Positions 5,882 to 40,649 of a DNA stretch of 44,715 bases are shown in pieces. Positions within the stretch are counted from its first letter, which is position 1; every line of letters starts with the position of its first letter. The position numbers were made by a program, and so were the translations under genes. The notes below the pieces were generated by a model. That model ran no database searches. It worked only from the letters and a program-made list of their open reading frames with translations, and was not told the DNA's origin. The stretch is from Shigella phage vB_SboD_StarDew: the sequence record NC_073082; one strand, given 5' to 3'.

Positions 5882-5910
5882 TTTTGTGTCCTCGTTGTTG
5901 GTGTGCAACC

Positions 5911-5940
5911 AATATAATGCAACCAATACTCGGATTGCAA
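5911..5940 (-). promoter_or_regulatory. candidate promoter (minus strand): -35 TTGCAA, 18-bp spacer containing ATTGGTTGCA, -10 TATATT
   Basis: Read on reverse complement; same architecture recurs at 27247-27275 and 40008-40036. Confidence 0.45.
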
Positions 5941-21959: not shown

Positions 21960-22039
21960 GGTATCATCCCCTATATTTGGTTGAGTTTTAGTATTACACC
22001 GCTCAACCGGGATTGCAACCAATTTAAGAGGATTCAGCT

Positions 22040-25291: not shown

Positions 25292-25353
25292 TATGTTTTC
25301 CTTTTTAGTGGGGGCGGTATTGCCCCCGACGTGATTAAGATACTGCAACCAAC

Positions 25354-25824
25354 CTATTGGTTGCAAGTGAATTTTGCAACGTTTATCGCATAAATTTTCG
25401 GGACCAGATCGCCGCACGCCCGACGAATTGCCGCGATGTTCTTCGGACAGTCTTCAATGATGACCAGTTCCGACACGTCCGCGTAGCAGACCATTTTGAA
25501 CACGGCGCACGCCTTAAACTCTGGCGGCGGGGTGTCGTCCAGCATGTGGCGCATAAACAACCGGCCTACCGGGAATACCTCCAATTGCTCGGCGGTGGTG
25601 TCCCAACATTCACGCTGCCGGTTGGTCAGATACGCGATCTCGAAGCCTTGCTCTTTGTACATGGTCAGCAGCGGCAGCATATCCATGTTCAGATCTTCGC
25701 GTACGTGCGCTCTGTGCCACTTCGCCCAAAAGGTGGATTTAGTTTTTATGCCAGGCACCAGGTCGGCACGCGCATCGCTTGAACCGTTAATAACGCCATC
25801 CAGATCGCAAATCAGTAATTTCAT
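25354..25824 (-). CDS. HAD-superfamily phosphatase-like protein (possible nucleotidase / polynucleotide 3-prime phosphatase)
   Basis: N-terminal HAD motif I (LLICDLDGVI); GAGGAG RBS. Confidence 0.55.
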   Translation of the reverse strand: MKLLICDLDGVINGSSDARADLVPGIKTKSTFWAKWHRAHVREDLNMDMLPLLTMYKEQGFEIAYLTNRQRECWDTTAEQLEVFPVGRLFMRHMLDDTPPPEFKACAVFKMVCYADVSELVIIEDCPKNIAAIRRACGDLVPKIYAINVAKFTCNQ

Positions 25825-26054
25825 TTCAACTCCTCGATCAGATTCGTACGAACAACACGGGCAGAAAAAGCGTCACACACAAGATGACAACGGGCGGTCA
25901 TTACAAGCCAGCCGGTAAGGTCAATGCCGAGCAATTGCTCCGGGCGACTGACCCGCCGCACTTTGTTCTCCCTCGGGTTAATTTGGTAGCGTTTAACAAT
26001 TTCGTCCACGACGCGCATACTGCGGTCAACGACTAAGATATTCATGTAGCTCAC
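25821..26054 (-). CDS. small hypothetical protein (GTG start; alternative ATG at 26045)
   Basis: ORF overlapping the 3-prime end of the methyltransferase gene; weak RBS. Confidence 0.3.
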   Translation of the reverse strand: MSYMNILVVDRSMRVVDEIVKRYQINPRENKVRRVSRPEQLLGIDLTGWLVMTARCHLVCDAFSARVVRTNLIEELK

Positions 26055-26511
26055 TCTCGCTCATTATTTCAATTTGTGCGCTGCCGATGGGTGGCGCTTC
26101 GTCAAATATTATTAATTGCTGGCACTTGTTATTGCTCGGACCGACTTCGCCGGTGACGGCGTGAATGAATCTAATCCGCCAGTCCAGAAGAATTATCATA
26201 TTGGCGGTCCTCCGGGCCAGCTTCGCCCACTTCGTCGACGTGTCCTGATTCAGTAGCATGACGGTCCGACGTCCATGCGCTGCGCACTCGACCCACGGCA
26301 GCGGATCGGAATACGGCGGATTGCACCACTTCCACCCTTTCAACTCCGACCAGTCCGCATCGAGCGCGCTGTGCTCTGCCGTGAAGTAACGCGGCAGCAG
26401 GTGGTTGGCGTCGCTCGCCGCCATATCGTAACGGAATCGGTACTTCCGGCGCAGTGGTTTAAATAAAGCTGGCGGTGTGCGCCAGCTATCTTTTTGCTCA
26501 TTCTCCGTCAT
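26026..26511 (-). CDS. dam: DNA N6-adenine (or N4-cytosine) methyltransferase, phage Dam-like
   Basis: Motifs WRTPPALF and WKWCNPPYSDPLPW (amino-MTase catalytic NPPY); about 160 aa as in phage orphan Dam enzymes. Confidence 0.7.
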   Translation of the reverse strand: MTENEQKDSWRTPPALFKPLRRKYRFRYDMAASDANHLLPRYFTAEHSALDADWSELKGWKWCNPPYSDPLPWVECAAHGRRTVMLLNQDTSTKWAKLARRTANMIILLDWRIRFIHAVTGEVGPSNNKCQQLIIFDEAPPIGSAQIEIMSESELHEYLSR

Positions 26512-26956
26512 AGTCTGGATCTATCGCATACAGGGCGGTTTTCTTGCTGCTAGACAGCACACGTTGGACTCGGGATATCTCCGCCCTACTGAGCGGTCTG
26601 CTATCGGAATAGTAGCTGCCGTTTGCACGCCACGCTATACGCACCAGTCCTTCCCGCGGGATCGAAGACTGGCGGCCTTTGGGGCGCACGTACTCCTCCG
26701 CGCGTTTACAATGTTCACGCAACGCATCCGCCGTGACGCGGTTTAGCGCAACGCTGGTTGTGTATCCGGTGCGCTGCATAATCCCCATCAGTTCGAAAAG
26801 CAGTTCAAAGCGCTCCTCTAACTCCATGCGACGCTTTTCTTCCGTTTCATAGCTTGACAGGTAGGTATCCGCCAGCGCGTTGACGCGTTCGGCATGTTCG
26901 CGGGCTTCGAGGCATTGCGCGGCCCAGTAATCTTTCTCTTCTTGTAAAATTTTCAT
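26498..26956 (-). CDS. hypothetical protein (152 aa)
   Basis: ORF with GGAG RBS; stop abuts stop of upstream gene. Confidence 0.45.
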   Translation of the reverse strand: MKILQEEKDYWAAQCLEAREHAERVNALADTYLSSYETEEKRRMELEERFELLFELMGIMQRTGYTTSVALNRVTADALREHCKRAEEYVRPKGRQSSIPREGLVRIAWRANGSYYSDSRPLSRAEISRVQRVLSSSKKTALYAIDPDYDGE

Positions 26957-27199
26957 TTATTTAAGCTCCGTTGTGCGAATCTCATCGCGCGGGATAAATT
27001 TACCATCCATCTCAACCCAGCAGACACCATAGCGCCATTGGGTATTGCGTCCGGTTTGCTCGGGGTACACGGTATTGCATTCGTAGCGTTCCGTGTAGTA
27101 AATAGCCGCTGTAGGTACGCAAACACAAACGGCAATCATGAGGGTGAGGAGCACCCAAAATCGAAGGTCGCCGTCGTAGTCGAAAAATAATGATTTCAT
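26957..27199 (-). CDS. small membrane protein (one TM helix)
   Basis: Hydrophobic segment WVLLTLMIAVCVCVPTAAIYY; GGAGAC RBS before ATG at 27199; own promoter at 27247-27275. Confidence 0.45.
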   Translation of the reverse strand: MKSLFFDYDGDLRFWVLLTLMIAVCVCVPTAAIYYTERYECNTVYPEQTGRNTQWRYGVCWVEMDGKFIPRDEIRTTELK

Positions 27200-27246
27200 A
27201 TCACTGTCTCCGGGTATCAAAAAGGGCGTCCAAACCGGACACCCTC

Positions 27247-27275
27247 AATATAATGCAACCAATACGGTTATGCAA
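27247..27275 (-). promoter_or_regulatory. candidate promoter (minus strand): -35 TTGCAT, 17-bp spacer containing ATTGGTTGCA, -10 TATATT
   Basis: Read on reverse complement; 19-mer AATATAATGCAACCAATAC identical to 5911-5929. Confidence 0.45.
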
Positions 27276-27280
27276 CCAAT

Positions 27281-27604
27281 TTACGAATAAAAATTTGGGT
27301 CGCGCGCAACGTCTACCAGATACAGGTTACTAATGCGGTTGCCGTAATGGCCTGGTGTGCGTTGACGGCACACTACGGCATAGCCTGGAGGGATTGTATT
27401 GCCAGTCTCAATAATCCACGCCACGCGTGCGCCAGACAGCGTCTTGCCGTTGCATTCGATACGTGTTCCGCCATCGGCGGTGTTAAGGTTGCCGATCTTG
27501 CAGCCTGTGGATTTCAGGCGAATGACGCCGGTCTTGCTGTCGTAGGAAAAAAGCTGATTGGTCATTGCCACGGAAAAGTCGATGGCTTCGAATGTAGTAT
27601 TCAT
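27281..27604 (-). CDS. hypothetical protein with degenerate HNH/AP2-like endonuclease signature
   Basis: Pattern SYDSKTGVIRLK...ARVAWIIETG...NRISNLYLV resembles HNH homing-endonuclease layout but lacks canonical catalytic His; GAGGAA RBS. Confidence 0.35.
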   Translation of the reverse strand: MNTTFEAIDFSVAMTNQLFSYDSKTGVIRLKSTGCKIGNLNTADGGTRIECNGKTLSGARVAWIIETGNTIPPGYAVVCRQRTPGHYGNRISNLYLVDVARDPNFYS

Positions 27605-28296
27605 TTTAAATTTTCCTCATTGACCGCTATCGCGAAGCCGCGCGGGGTGAGCGACCTGATTAATTTGGTGCGGGCTGATTTGCCTCCGAGGCGACTATAC
27701 TGCTTCGAGTACCATTTTTCAACGAAAACAGGTTTCTTCTCTGGCATACGGAAGCCGTTGCCGGTCCATAAGCAGGTCAGCTTCGGATATGAATCGCGGG
27801 CGTTGATGTATTCCGGGAAGAGCGGGTGTACGTCATCCTCCGGCAGATAGCCCCCATACTCCCACGGATCAAACGAGTGGTCCGGCTTACGCCATTGAGT
27901 TGATAGCACGCTGCGCGGATTCTCAATCATATATGGCACTTCGAAGAAGTCACCCAGGTAAGCGGCGATCTTCGCGGTGCGCACCGCCTTAATCTGAAAG
28001 GCTGGGTCTTTTGCACGCTTACGCGGGAAAGCTGGCGCACCGCTCACCGCCAGATCAGTACACGGCGGGAATGCGTAGATGATATCCGGCGTACCGAAAT
28101 CGCCATTCATCGCGCGGTCTACGAAGTCCAGATCGATAAACTCATTACGATATCGGATACCGCGACCATAGATCCGGTAGTCCAGGTAAGACCCGTGATC
28201 GGCTTCGGAGTAGTTGAAGCAATAACACTTATGCCCCATCTCGGCAGCACGCTCGATCATCAAGCCGCTGCCGTCAAATAATGACCAGATAATCAT
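27601..28296 (-). CDS. compact DNA (cytosine-5)-methyltransferase-like protein with non-canonical motifs
   Basis: Motif I-like LFDGSG, motif IV-like FPPCTDLAVSG (catalytic Cys), motif VI-like MIENPRSV; only 231 aa. Confidence 0.5.
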   Translation of the reverse strand: MIIWSLFDGSGLMIERAAEMGHKCYCFNYSEADHGSYLDYRIYGRGIRYRNEFIDLDFVDRAMNGDFGTPDIIYAFPPCTDLAVSGAPAFPRKRAKDPAFQIKAVRTAKIAAYLGDFFEVPYMIENPRSVLSTQWRKPDHSFDPWEYGGYLPEDDVHPLFPEYINARDSYPKLTCLWTGNGFRMPEKKPVFVEKWYSKQYSRLGGKSARTKLIRSLTPRGFAIAVNEENLK

Positions 28297-29717
28297 TTGC
28301 GCGCCTTTTTAGCTTTCATGTATTCCATCAAGTCGTCCTGAATATCCCGCTTACTGTCGCGACGCTCGGCGACAAGTTCATCCAGTGTGCCACGCGCCTG
28401 GATAATGTAGACGAATACCGGACGAGGGTGTCCGGCTTGCATCTGGCGAACCGGCCCGATACGCTCCACAATCTGCGAAAAATGTTCATAGTTCCAGGTG
28501 TCGGAGAAGATGGCAAGGTGGTGTCCGCCATCCTGCAAGTTAAGGCCGTGACCCGCCGATGCCGGGTGTGCGAACATGATGGGGATCTCGCCCCTGTTCC
28601 ACGCTTCCATGTCCTTATTGCCTTGCTTACCCTTACCCATCGCTACGCCGTGCGGGAATTTCTTCTTGAGACGCGCCAGGTCATGCTTATACTGGTACGC
28701 GACGAGCAACGGTGCGCCGTTCAACTCCTCCACGATACTTTCCAGCGCGTCCAGTTTAGCGTCGTGGATTTTCACCCATTCGTCGGTGCGCTCGCCGTCT
28801 TCGTCGACTTTATACACGGCCCCGGAAGCAAGCTGAAGGCACTTAATAGTCTTCGAAGCAGCGTTCGCCGCCTCCACCGTTCCGCTTTCCAGTTCGGCAA
28901 ATAGCTCCGCTTCGAACTGGTCATAAATCTTGCGGGCTTTCTTCGGCAGGTCCACAACAACCGGAGTATAGATTGGCTTGTCACATCCGAAGTATTCAGC
29001 CGCGTCAACGGTAAGGGATACGTCAGACAGGCGTTGTTGGATCTCCTTCTCGGAGTTCTTGAGCGGGGCGTGCTGCATAGTGAAGCTGCCAGGCTTAACA
29101 GGCTTGCTAATAAACCAGCGATCCGTGAATGCCTTATAGCTACTGCCGAGGCGTTCGCCACCGTCGACAAACCACGTCTGACCCCATAGGTCTTTCAGTC
29201 CGTTTGGTGCGGGTGTGCCGGTAAGGTTAATCCAGCGCTTGACGCGCTTATGTGCGATCGCCGCCAGGGCGCGGGCGCGCTTACTTCCCTGCTTGCTGCG
29301 GTAGCCTTTCAGCTTAGTGGATTCATCGGCAACAACGACCGTAAAGGGCCACTCGTCGCCACAATACTCGACAAGCCACTCAACCACATCATAGTTAACA
29401 CAAACCACGTTAGCGTCGCTCTCAAGCGCAGCGATGCGGTCCTTCTCTGACCCAGTGCCATCTACTACCAGCAGGGCTGGGAAGCGCCATTTCTCCTGTT
29501 CCGGGGGCCATGTGCCAGATGCAACGCGCAGCGGGGCCAGCACCAGTACGCGGTCATCCTGGTTGGACAGGATGCCGGTCTGGAACATTTTATTCAGCGC
29601 CCACATAGTCGCGCCGGTTTTACCGGACCCCATTGTCGCCCATATATTGCATCGCTTATGCTTGAGGATGAACGCGGTTATCAACTTCTGATATTCGCGA
29701 CGTCGGAAACGTGCCAT
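28293..29717 (-). CDS. SNF2/DEAD-like superfamily 2 DNA helicase
   Basis: Walker A TMGSGKTG, DEXx box VVADESTKLK, C-terminal helicase domain; ATG at 29717 with RBS (track ORF extends to 29807). Confidence 0.8.
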   Translation of the reverse strand: MARFRRREYQKLITAFILKHKRCNIWATMGSGKTGATMWALNKMFQTGILSNQDDRVLVLAPLRVASGTWPPEQEKWRFPALLVVDGTGSEKDRIAALESDANVVCVNYDVVEWLVEYCGDEWPFTVVVADESTKLKGYRSKQGSKRARALAAIAHKRVKRWINLTGTPAPNGLKDLWGQTWFVDGGERLGSSYKAFTDRWFISKPVKPGSFTMQHAPLKNSEKEIQQRLSDVSLTVDAAEYFGCDKPIYTPVVVDLPKKARKIYDQFEAELFAELESGTVEAANAASKTIKCLQLASGAVYKVDEDGERTDEWVKIHDAKLDALESIVEELNGAPLLVAYQYKHDLARLKKKFPHGVAMGKGKQGNKDMEAWNRGEIPIMFAHPASAGHGLNLQDGGHHLAIFSDTWNYEHFSQIVERIGPVRQMQAGHPRPVFVYIIQARGTLDELVAERRDSKRDIQDDLMEYMKAKKARK

Positions 29718-29721
29718 ATCT

Positions 29722-29940
29722 TTATTCCGCCTTTTTCCAGACTTCGGTTTCACTGTTCCAATTCCTTTTTGTGGCGTCGTAGTTGGTGCGGTGCCCGATG
29801 TGCACACCCGTCGCCCGGAAGCTCTTAAATTTTTGCCAGCATACCGTCAACGGCAGCGGGTCATTCATGCCCGCGATAAACCATACGCGATCGCCCGGTT
29901 TACATTCGCCCAGCTTGGTGAGTCGGTAATGCTCTTTCAT
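29722..29940 (-). CDS. small hypothetical protein (72 aa)
   Basis: GGGAGAC RBS 8 nt before ATG at 29940. Confidence 0.4.
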   Translation of the reverse strand: MKEHYRLTKLGECKPGDRVWFIAGMNDPLPLTVCWQKFKSFRATGVHIGHRTNYDATKRNWNSETEVWKKAE

Positions 29941-33775: not shown

Positions 33776-33865
33776 TTTCCAATTCCTCATTTTCACATGT
33801 ATCGGGGTTATTGGAAGCCACCCCGTTCGGCTTGGTTGCAGATTTACTCGGTTGCGCCTAAGCGG

Positions 33866-36721: not shown

Positions 36722-36750
36722 ATATTAGATTGGTTGCAGAAGGGAGTCAA
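36722..36750 (-). promoter_or_regulatory. candidate leftward early promoter: -35 TTGACT, 17-bp spacer containing TGCAACCAAT, -10 TAATAT
   Basis: Read on reverse complement directly downstream of the minus-strand terminator. Confidence 0.35.
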
Positions 36751-39848: not shown

Positions 39849-40007
39849 CATAAAATCCAGGATTGCATAACGCACGGCAACATGATGCAAATTGCGGTCG
39901 TCGATGATCTAGGCAACCAATGCGAGTTGCAGAATGGTGGGTGAGAAATGCAGTTTGCAGTCACAGCAGATAGCGATCAACTTTTTCATACGCGTGATTA
40001 ATATTGG

Positions 40008-40036
40008 TTGCACCCACCCTGGCACCCTGCTATATT
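40008..40036 (+). promoter_or_regulatory. candidate promoter: -35 TTGCAC within ATTGGTTGCA, 17-bp spacer, -10 TATATT, conserved leader
   Basis: Leader TATATTGGTTGCACACCAACA...GAGGAC nearly identical to the reverse complement of 5890-5916. Confidence 0.45.
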
Positions 40037-40064
40037 GGTTGCACACCAACATGAGGACTGAACA

Positions 40065-40379: not shown

Positions 40380-40649
40380 ATGGACCGCAGACGCGCAAAA
40401 CGCCTTTCATGGCGTATTCCACTGCATTGCATACGAATATGGGCTAAGAATGCGAATGAGGGCGATTCTGTGTTCTGGTGCTATCGCGACGATGTGAAGC
40501 CATTAACGCAGACTCGCTATCTGCACCAGTTCGCCAGGGGGCATGGGCTTGCCATAAAAACGTCCTTGCAACCAATTGGCATCCGTATTACATTACGCCG
40601 GAAGCCCGCAGTCGAGCGGGTAGGCAAACACTGGAGACTGAGCAAATGA
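40380..40649 (+). CDS. hypothetical basic protein (89 aa)
   Basis: AAGGGG RBS 6 nt upstream of ATG; alternative-frame ORFs overlap, so coding frame uncertain. Confidence 0.35.
   Translation: MDRRRAKRLSWRIPLHCIRIWAKNANEGDSVFWCYRDDVKPLTQTRYLHQFARGHGLAIKTSLQPIGIRITLRRKPAVERVGKHWRLSK

Follow-up and report, generated by a model that had tools for sequence, protein, structure and literature searches.

The region described here lies within a 44,715 nt stretch of DNA from Shigella phage vB_SboD_StarDew (sequence record NC_073082), referred to, at its full length, as the window. Within a leftward block of replication genes, positions 26026 to 28296 encode, amongst others, a protein of 231 amino acids (aa) that is, with good probability, an active, stand-alone DNA cytosine-C5 methyltransferase, dependent on S-adenosylmethionine (SAM) and belonging to a compact, phage-specific family. 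The same block contains a second, Dam-type methyltransferase of 161 aa. Including the gene directly upstream, the open reading frames (ORFs) and other features of the locus are as follows.

28293..29807, reverse strand: SNF2-family helicase gene, directly upstream of the C5 enzyme gene (Pfam SNF2-rel_dom, E = 3e-11; phrog_62, E = 7e-157)
27601..28296, reverse strand: predicted compact orphan DNA C5-cytosine methyltransferase, 231 aa (phrog_757 family, phage 'Dcm-like' proteins)
27281..27604, reverse strand: HNH-like protein, 107 aa, probably catalytically degenerate (phrog_99, E = 1.2e-16)
27221..27280, reverse strand: 60 bp intergenic gap downstream of the HNH-like gene, containing repeats as well as a promoter-like site and a hairpin plus T-run
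26957..27199 or 26957..27220, reverse strand: small conserved ORF without known function, with 80 aa if started at ATG 27199 and 87 aa if started at TTG 27220 (phrog_18961, E = 1.3e-53)
26498..26956, reverse strand: conserved ORF of unknown function, 152 aa (phrog_10530, E = 3e-87)
26026..26511, reverse strand: predicted orphan phage Dam-type N6-adenine methyltransferase, 161 aa (Pfam PF05869, E = 1.1e-36)

The stop codon of the helicase gene and the start codon of the C5 methyltransferase gene overlap as ATGA (28293-28296), and the same arrangement joins the stop of the methyltransferase gene to the ATG of the HNH-like gene (27601-27604). The 2.3 kb region matches 156 phage records at 89-92 % nucleotide identity, nearly all of them Dhillonvirus phages of Escherichia (siphoviruses of the HK578 type, ~44-45 kb in size), including vB_EcoS_011D5, YD-2008.s, SSL-2009a and the BASEL phage Oekolampad (Bas18). 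Annotations in these relatives read 'Dam-like N6-adenine methyltransferase', 'putative homing/HNH endonuclease' and 'Dcm-like C5 cytosine methyltransferase'. Published Dhillonvirus genomes with annotations for both methyltransferase genes number more than 140, and this gene content is already public.

A preliminary description of this DNA had recognised motifs I, IV and VI of C5-methyltransferases, in altered form (LFDGSG, PPCTD, ENP), within the 231-aa protein. All three are indeed present, and a further block is conserved towards the C-terminus of the family.

28264..28284, reverse strand: motif I, SLFDGSG, residues 5-11, forming the loop that follows beta-1 and binds SAM, as read from the sequence
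28054..28071, reverse strand: motif IV, FPPCTD, residues 76-81, with the codon of the predicted catalytic Cys79 at 28060-28062, as read from the sequence
27916..27924, reverse strand: motif VI, ENP, residues 125-127, replacing the canonical ENV, as read from the sequence
27622..27690, reverse strand: C-terminal block LGGKS..TK.IRSLTPRGFAIAV, residues 203-225, from family conservation

Amongst 225 family members, motif I retains F7 in 177 and G11 in 195, Cys79 of motif IV is kept in 217, and motif VI is almost without exception preserved (E125 in 221, N126 in 216 and P127 in 223). Because of this near-invariance, and because 68 of the 115 close relatives match the C5-methyltransferase profile PF00145, the three motifs are, as judged from sequence, more than chance resemblances. 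The matches of these relatives to PF00145 are weak (best E = 1.3e-6, or 28.5 bits where the cut-off is 22) and span only profile positions 4-94, corresponding to motifs I-IV. In alignments to C5-methyltransferases, as had been proposed for confirming the motifs, motifs I-IV align with confidence, whilst the window protein itself remains below the Pfam gathering threshold, with no match to PF00145 even at E up to 10. When position-specific scoring matrices (PSSMs) built from 78 viral relatives of M.HhaI were scanned over the 231-aa protein, the best match for motif IV was at FPPCTD (p = 0.012), and motif I scored p = 0.06. Profile alignment with hhalign pairs motif I with 'SLFDGIATG' of DNMT3A and 'DLFAGLGG' of M.HhaI, and aligns motifs I and IV to both enzymes, with E = 1.4e-4 for motifs I-IV against DNMT3A; the sequences used were validated as 285/285 identical to 5yx2_A for DNMT3A and 327/327 identical to 10mh_A for M.HhaI. 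Motif II of the compact family is a short D/N28. The family also shares motif detail that is specific to DNMT3, namely SLFDG in motif I and PCxDL[SA] in motif IV.

At the level of the family, the protein matches phrog_757 ('DNA methyltransferase') over residues 1-229 with E = 1.3e-82. The compact family comprises 2898 clusters at 90 % identity and 800 representatives at 50 % identity (E up to 1e-3), and is present in 1510 of 50,697 phage records (~3 %), mostly from phages of Escherichia, Klebsiella and Salmonella, with Dhillonvirus, Drexlerviridae and large myoviruses (CarlMeissner, Krischvirus LF73P4) amongst its carriers. No nuclease partner accompanies the family in these 1510 records, and no PADLOC restriction-modification model matches the 231-aa protein, which is, on this gene content, an orphan without a cognate nuclease. 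Some distant homologues (P0221, P0224 and P0234, as well as P0218 and P0245) carry long, low-complexity N-terminal extensions. In the first three of these the catalytic residues are lost (PPC to PPS or PPG; ENP to ANP, SNP or LNP) and the C-terminal TPRGFA.A helix is kept; these proteins may be inactivated derivatives, possibly borne by eukaryotes or giant viruses.

With regard to structure, an AF2 model of the 231-aa protein (pLDDT 90.6, pTM 0.89) displays a predicted class I methyltransferase fold with C5-methyltransferase topology, and the top 38 Foldseek matches in the PDB are, without exception, DNMT3A, DNMT3B or DNMT3C, and not methyltransferases of bacterial restriction-modification systems. 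A search of PDB chains by sequence gives a kinase as the best match for the 231-aa protein (E = 0.44), and a profile of 115 sequences finds no chain at E up to 10. The catalytic domains of DNMT3A and DNMT3B share only 12-16 % identity with the protein; they possess clear motifs VIII (RxR), IX and X (GRSW) and some 55 more residues, and DNMT3 works on CpG as a DNMT3L or homo-oligomer. The modelled likeness to DNMT3 may have arisen by convergence towards a compact form or reflect a genuine evolutionary relationship. Homology, fold and the conservation of catalytic residues can, on these comparisons, be taken as established for the 231-aa protein. Amongst BFVD models, two large proteins of uncultured phages, A0A6J5SE15_1 (1397 aa) and A0A6J5NPY6_2 (1126 aa), carry the compact methyltransferase fold as one domain; both are annotated 'Helicase/UvrB, N-terminal', echoing the translational coupling of helicase and methyltransferase in the window.

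Towards the C-terminus, only 42 residues extend from Lys172 (invariant, in beta-7) to R214 of the motif IX-like RSLTPR, compared with 107 residues from R165 (motif VIII) to R272 (motif IX) in M.HhaI. A canonical target-recognition domain (TRD), which would fill at least ~80-100 residues from motif VIII to motif IX, is accordingly absent, and the earlier suggestion that the protein is too short for a normal TRD proves correct. The protein therefore presents itself as a compact C5 enzyme with a much reduced variable region; at ~230 aa it is some 30 % smaller than classical stand-alone bacterial C5-methyltransferases. Ahead of beta-7 lies a conserved insertion of 20-30 residues, EYGGYLPEDDVHPLFPEYINARDSYPK (EYGGYLPEDD...RDSYPK), the start of which, 'EYGGYLPEDD', resembles 'DYGvPQxRxR' with the arginines missing. 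This insertion may contribute to target recognition, and the invariant K172 may stand in for the arginines of motif VIII. The best PSSM match for motif IX (R.LT.RE.ARLQGFP) is RSLTPRGFAIAV at residues 214-225, with a p-value of ~0.02 that is comparable to those of motifs IV and I, and the protein ends 6 residues past this segment. Across the family the C-terminus reads LGGKS..TK.IRS.TPRGFA.AV...N, followed by a stop. Low-confidence hhalign alignments place RSLTPRGFAIAV on motif IX when run against the M.HhaI-family profile, and LGGKS..IR on motif X 'LLGRSWSVPVIR' when run against DNMT3A.

The activity and specificity of the enzyme in the StarDew phage may be proposed by analogy with relatives for which experiments have been published. 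Over its full length the 231-aa protein is 54 % identical (E = 1e-85) to bas06_0055 of phage KarlJaspers (Bas06). The phage K42 is a strain 95 % identical to KarlJaspers/Bas06, and K42 escapers of retron Ec86 carry mutations in a 711 bp 'dcm' gene (bioRxiv 10.1101/2023.08.16.553469). The bas06_0055 gene is likewise 711 bp long, and its product has C82, E128, K175 and K176 exactly where they are published for K42 Dcm. In the alignment, C79, E125 and K172 of the 231-aa protein correspond to C82, E128 and K175, and K176 is replaced by Leu173. Expression of K42 Dcm is toxic only with the retron present, and its authors also note that Dcm itself appears toxic when overexpressed; by mass spectrometry coupled to liquid chromatography (LC-MS), 5-methylcytosine (5mC) in the Ec86 multicopy single-stranded DNA (msDNA) is raised by K42 Dcm and not by a C82A/E128A/K175A/K176A mutant (bioRxiv 10.1101/2023.08.16.553469). 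Furthermore, defence is abolished when the CC of the msDNA CCTGG site is changed, and a Dcm of the K42 kind is encoded by 34 of the 35 Ec86-sensitive phages in the authors' collection (bioRxiv 10.1101/2023.08.16.553469). The K42/KarlJaspers enzyme, the trigger of retron-Eco1 (Ec86), thus shares family, architecture and orphan state with the StarDew protein at a similar size (236 versus 231 aa), and both are carried by lytic siphoviruses of E. coli. Differences are found in the host phages, which belong to Hanrivervirus (Drexlerviridae) and Dhillonvirus, respectively, in the residue at K176, and in gene context, as coupling to genes for an SNF2 helicase and an HNH-like protein is a feature of the 231-aa gene and not of that of K42/KarlJaspers.

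A second relative, gp52 of Pantoea phage vB_PagS_AAS23, is 51.6 % identical to the 231-aa protein and, as in StarDew, is encoded alongside a Dam-superfamily methyltransferase, here in a phage of another host genus. AAS23 DNA was judged to be both Dam- and Dcm-methylated from a panel of digests that included MboI and EcoRII (PMC8004638); these were performed on virion DNA, to whose methylation the host may have contributed. Pantoea phage MED16, which encodes a Dam-superfamily methyltransferase only, together with DpdA, has DNA that resists MboI and is cut by EcoRII (PMC8306585). The two phages form an imperfect natural control, having been grown on different P. agglomerans strains (AUR and BSL). 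By analogy, this pair points to CCWGG as the target of the compact C5 family and to GATC as that of PF05869-type Dam enzymes, and CCWGG is the most probable target of the 231-aa enzyme. The window contains 148 CCWGG sites (observed/expected 0.92) and 172 GATC sites (0.85), with no avoidance of either; the counts are near expectation and uninformative on specificity. In the window as a whole, CTAG is strongly under-represented (13 observed versus 49.5 expected, a ratio of 0.26), whilst GGCC (0.65), TATA (0.64) and CTGCAG (0.60) are moderately low.

It is also conceivable, though rather unlikely, that the enzyme retains 5mC chemistry and acts on a target other than CCWGG, be it a shorter or different one of 2-4 bp, as with DNMT3 and CpG, or one recognised in a relaxed or multispecific manner. 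Such a target would suit the short span of 42 residues between beta-7 and the motif IX-like segment and the dinucleotide-reading DNMT3A/B as closest structures, along with a TRD that shows no similarity to that of E. coli Dcm. The apparent toxicity of overexpressed K42 Dcm also favours it, and the lack of Ec86 self-triggering in dcm+ MG1655 hints that the phage enzyme does something that host Dcm does not. Opposing this are the EcoRII digests, in which AAS23 DNA was judged Dcm-methylated and MED16 DNA, from a phage in which the gene is absent, was cut, as well as the need for both cytosines of the msDNA CCTGG site in triggering. McrBC cuts at R-5mC sites, and these phages plaque on McrBC+ K-12 hosts, which argues against frequent R-5mC.

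Several observations weigh against an active C5-methyltransferase directed at CCWGG. In searches by sequence, the 231-aa protein finds no match in Pfam, NCBIfam or the PDB, and against E. coli Dcm it yields a BLASTP E-value of 0.79, an hhalign probability of 0.1 % and no TRD similarity. Neither motif VIII (QxRxR; PSSM p = 0.74) nor motif X (GN[AS]V; PSSM p = 0.42) is recognisable in it, and the mapping of its C-terminus is contradictory between hhalign runs against DNMT3A, M.HhaI, Dcm and the 78-sequence profile, with confidence confined to motifs I-IV. The assignment of CCWGG is indirect, being drawn from an assumption of the K42 preprint, the msDNA mutants and two Pantoea phages on different host strains. 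E. coli MG1655 is dcm+ yet tolerates Ec86, which would be unexpected if methylation of the same cytosine sufficed as the trigger. BASEL phenotyping of Drexlerviridae revealed no straightforward relation of methyltransferase genes to resistance against restriction, and Dhillonvirus phages were described only as less restriction-resistant than Queuovirinae. A literature search for phage methylomes covering the compact C5 family turned up nothing beyond the preprint on retron Ec86 and the digests of Pantoea phage DNA.

The unrecognisable motifs VIII and X would be in keeping with an inactive, methyltransferase-like DNA binder or regulator, or with an enzyme that methylates RNA in the manner of DNMT2, and inactive derivatives do exist, given that P0221, P0224 and P0234 lack both the Cys and the Glu. 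Across the phage clade, however, hardly any member departs from Cys79, Glu125 or the SAM loop, and the K42 orthologue methylates DNA whilst its mutant, which includes C82A, does not, so that either possibility is hardly credible for the StarDew protein.

The preliminary description had also raised the idea of a different base-modification chemistry. In its most concrete form, the enzyme would transfer a carboxymethyl group from the carboxy-SAM (Cx-SAM) of the host, made in E. coli by CmoA, or some other group, and so generate 5-carboxymethylcytosine or a derivative instead of 5mC. What lends this interest is that the Asn of motif X decides cofactor choice, CmoX having Arg350 at this position (PMC12783734), and that the engineered N-to-K variants M.MpeI N374K and M.MedI N377K gain the use of Cx-SAM. 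The compact family lacks a GN motif and bears conserved basic residues (K206, R214, R219) in its C-terminal block, with K206 set at the Asn position by a low-confidence alignment; in addition, the short D/N28 of motif II recalls M.MpeI E45D, which together with N374K improves carboxymethylation, and E. coli does make carboxy-SAM. Nevertheless, 5mC was what K42 Dcm raised by LC-MS, and AAS23 DNA was judged Dcm-methylated. DNMT3A, in our own reading of its sequence, appears to place an Arg (R891) where motif X has its Asn, yet it uses SAM, and M.MedI-N377K still methylates fully with SAM. The alignments of the C-terminus also disagree on which residue occupies the position of M.HhaI N304. CmoX itself (PDB 8yf3) is a protein of 333-372 aa with an SPPC signature that requires a phage CmoA and often occurs with CmoY (PMC12783734). 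By comparison, the 231-aa protein has FPPC where SPPC defines CmoX, its likeness to CmoX is no greater than to ordinary methyltransferases, and no CmoA, CmoY-type or ligase gene is annotated in the syntenic Oekolampad genome. A chemistry of this kind is therefore very unlikely, and the earlier idea is not sustained.

A related thought, which we likewise hold to be highly doubtful, is that the phrog_757 family represents a truly minimal C5-methyltransferase, without the motif X lid and the RxR of motif VIII, in which a pocket of basic residues could accept host carboxy-SAM. Such a protein may end after the motif IX-like helix and have K206, R214 and R219 near the cofactor. If this were true, some 5-carboxymethylcytosine would be present in the DNA of coliphages that are very common, or these phages would display a relaxed, DNMT3-like short-motif specificity, beside or instead of 5mC in CCWGG.

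Taken as a 5mC-forming methyltransferase, the 231-aa enzyme would be co-translated with the SNF2 helicase as part of the leftward block of replication genes. From what is known of the superfamily, Cys79 of the FPPCTD loop would attack C6 of a flipped-out cytosine whose N3/N4 is held by Glu125 of ENP, and SAM bound on the SLFDGSG loop would donate its methyl group to C5, producing 5mC. Reading of the target would rely on the much reduced variable region. Methylation of CCWGG would provide the phage with a complete Dcm-type pattern regardless of the Dcm of its host, and hence with protection from EcoRII-type restriction. The cost to the phage would be that the compact C5 enzyme is the molecule sensed by retron-Eco1 (Ec86). 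The 161-aa protein would act independently, as an orphan Dam-type N6-adenine methyltransferase, probably specific for GATC.

With E. coli Dcm and M.EcoRII (PF00145), the 231-aa enzyme has in common motifs I, IV and VI and the motif IX-like string 'R.LTPR..A', and, by analogy, probably the same product, 5mC in CCWGG. E. coli Dcm differs in its length of 472 aa, in possessing a complete TRD and the GN of motif X, and in being paired with Vsr. 'Dcm-like' is thus best read as a statement of presumed product or function, not of kinship, and the name hides the lack of relation to E. coli Dcm. The earlier suggestion of an orphan Dcm-type enzyme accordingly stands as to the orphan state, there being no nuclease partner, but not as to kinship with E. 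coli Dcm. The expected modifications, N6-methyladenine in GATC and 5mC in CCWGG, are those of an E. coli K-12 host; hence the finding of no modification beyond host patterns, proposed beforehand as a refutation, is not usable for that purpose. Overall, the finding is real but ordinary: the genes themselves are not new, and a relative already has an established function. Since the compact C5 enzyme is sensed by retron-Eco1, its presence should, by analogy with K42, predict the sensitivity of the StarDew phage to this retron.

The 161-aa protein encoded at 26026-26511 had been described as Dam-like, which holds: it harbours NPPY at residues 64-67 (codons 26311-26322) and its match to Pfam Dam (PF05869) reaches 126.5 bits against a cut-off of 28.1. 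It also matches phrog_111 (E = 1.5e-54) and the PADLOC orphan methyltransferase model PDLC03721 (E = 2.6e-11). The equivalog cut-off of TIGR01712 is missed (87.7 versus 97.05 bits), marking the protein as a family member and not a certified equivalog. Its sequence is 37 % identical to the Dam of an Stx phage and 30 % identical to the T1-like Dam of KarlJaspers, and relatives occur in 1746 phage records. NPPY and small size are shared with the phage Dam family PF05869, although T1-type Dam enzymes, at 233 aa, are longer. On these matches the protein is classed as a phage Dam-type N6-adenine methyltransferase. It is probably GATC-specific by analogy with AAS23 and MED16, whose Dam genes were assigned by their authors to the Dam superfamily (cl05442) and whose DNA is resistant to MboI (PMC8004638, PMC8306585). 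The non-specific adenine methyltransferases Hia5 and Hin1523 were considered as members of PF05869 and dropped, as a published alignment groups them with M.EcoKDam and M1.DpnII.

An HNH-like ORF was correctly noted between the two methyltransferase genes, but it is not the sole intervening ORF, being accompanied by the 152-aa and 80/87-aa ORFs. Its product matches Pfam HNH_3 (PF13392) at E = 0.05 only (13.7 bits against a cut-off of 24.8), over profile positions 5-21 of 46. Compared by eye with what we take to be the HNH_3 consensus, 'GNRISNL' is retained and the catalytic 'DH' position reads 'VC/CR'. The protein does look degenerate, as had been proposed, and a loss of catalysis is plausible from these residues. 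At ≥90 % aa identity, ~155 Dhillonvirus records contain the gene, in every case as a neighbour of the methyltransferase gene; elsewhere it occurs only in Edwardsiella phages, at 40 % identity. The records number 160, nearly all of them at ≥90 % aa identity. The ~155 Dhillonvirus records and the fixed position rule out a sporadic homing endonuclease. The HNH-like gene is thus a fixed, conserved core gene of Dhillonvirus, with its ≥90 % aa identity set against ~90 % nucleotide identity for the region; this conservation therefore indicates purifying selection despite the apparent loss of the catalytic His, and the protein has probably been recruited to a non-nuclease role.

The ATGA overlap that couples the methyltransferase and HNH-like genes, and their adjacency in ~155 Dhillonvirus genomes, could be taken to signify a functional pair, either restriction-modification-like or with a methyl-directed nuclease, or else a coordinated cluster that includes Dam. 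This is most improbable given that the methyltransferase genes of KarlJaspers and AAS23 have unrelated small neighbours, that the HNH-like protein fails to reach the Pfam threshold and has, by eye, Cys/Arg in place of the catalytic His, and that the two distributions differ, with 1510 phage records for the methyltransferase family against 160 for the HNH-like gene. On the last of these points, a C5 family some ten times wider, the functional pair was rejected. The functional modification cluster put forward in the preliminary description fares no better, because in the Drexlerviridae phage KarlJaspers the unlinked Dam and C5 enzyme genes lie on opposite strands, 6 kb apart, and because in the window three ORFs and the promoter-like gap intervene. 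What we see is two independent orphan methyltransferases within a block of replication genes.

As for the remaining small ORFs, the 152-aa ORF finds no match in Pfam, NCBIfam or PADLOC. PHROGs (phrog_10530) and part of the RefSeq records name it 'DNA ligase', although it is far too small for a ligase, and the label looks like a propagated misannotation. For the adjacent ORF, the full 80-position profile of phrog_18961 covers residues 8-87 of the 87-aa version, GGAG precedes ATG 27199, and the TTG 27220 start falls within the T-run that belongs to the hairpin upstream. The gene proper probably spans 26957-27199 and encodes 80 aa.

The gap at 27221-27280 contains two direct TTGGTTGCA repeats (27254-27262 and 27271-27279), as well as a promoter-like site, TTGCAT-N17-TATATT, and a GC hairpin with T-run (~27219-27243). 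This 9-mer has 12 exact copies in the window, compared with a random expectation that we estimate at ~0.3 for any 9-mer in 44.7 kb on both strands. Allowing ≤1 mismatch, there are 23 copies versus 11.6 ± 3.2 in shuffled sequences, and 0 of 100 shuffles reach 23. The TTGGTTGCA sites are located as follows.

5904-5926
22014-22022
25344-25365
27254-27279
33832-33840
36730-36738
40004-40043
40567-40575

Most copies are paired, intergenic and just upstream of genes, with direct repeats 14-31 bp apart; the pair at 25344-25365 is inverted, and TATA(T/A)T often follows the copies. The 9-mer thereby resembles a phage-specific element that serves as promoter or operator.

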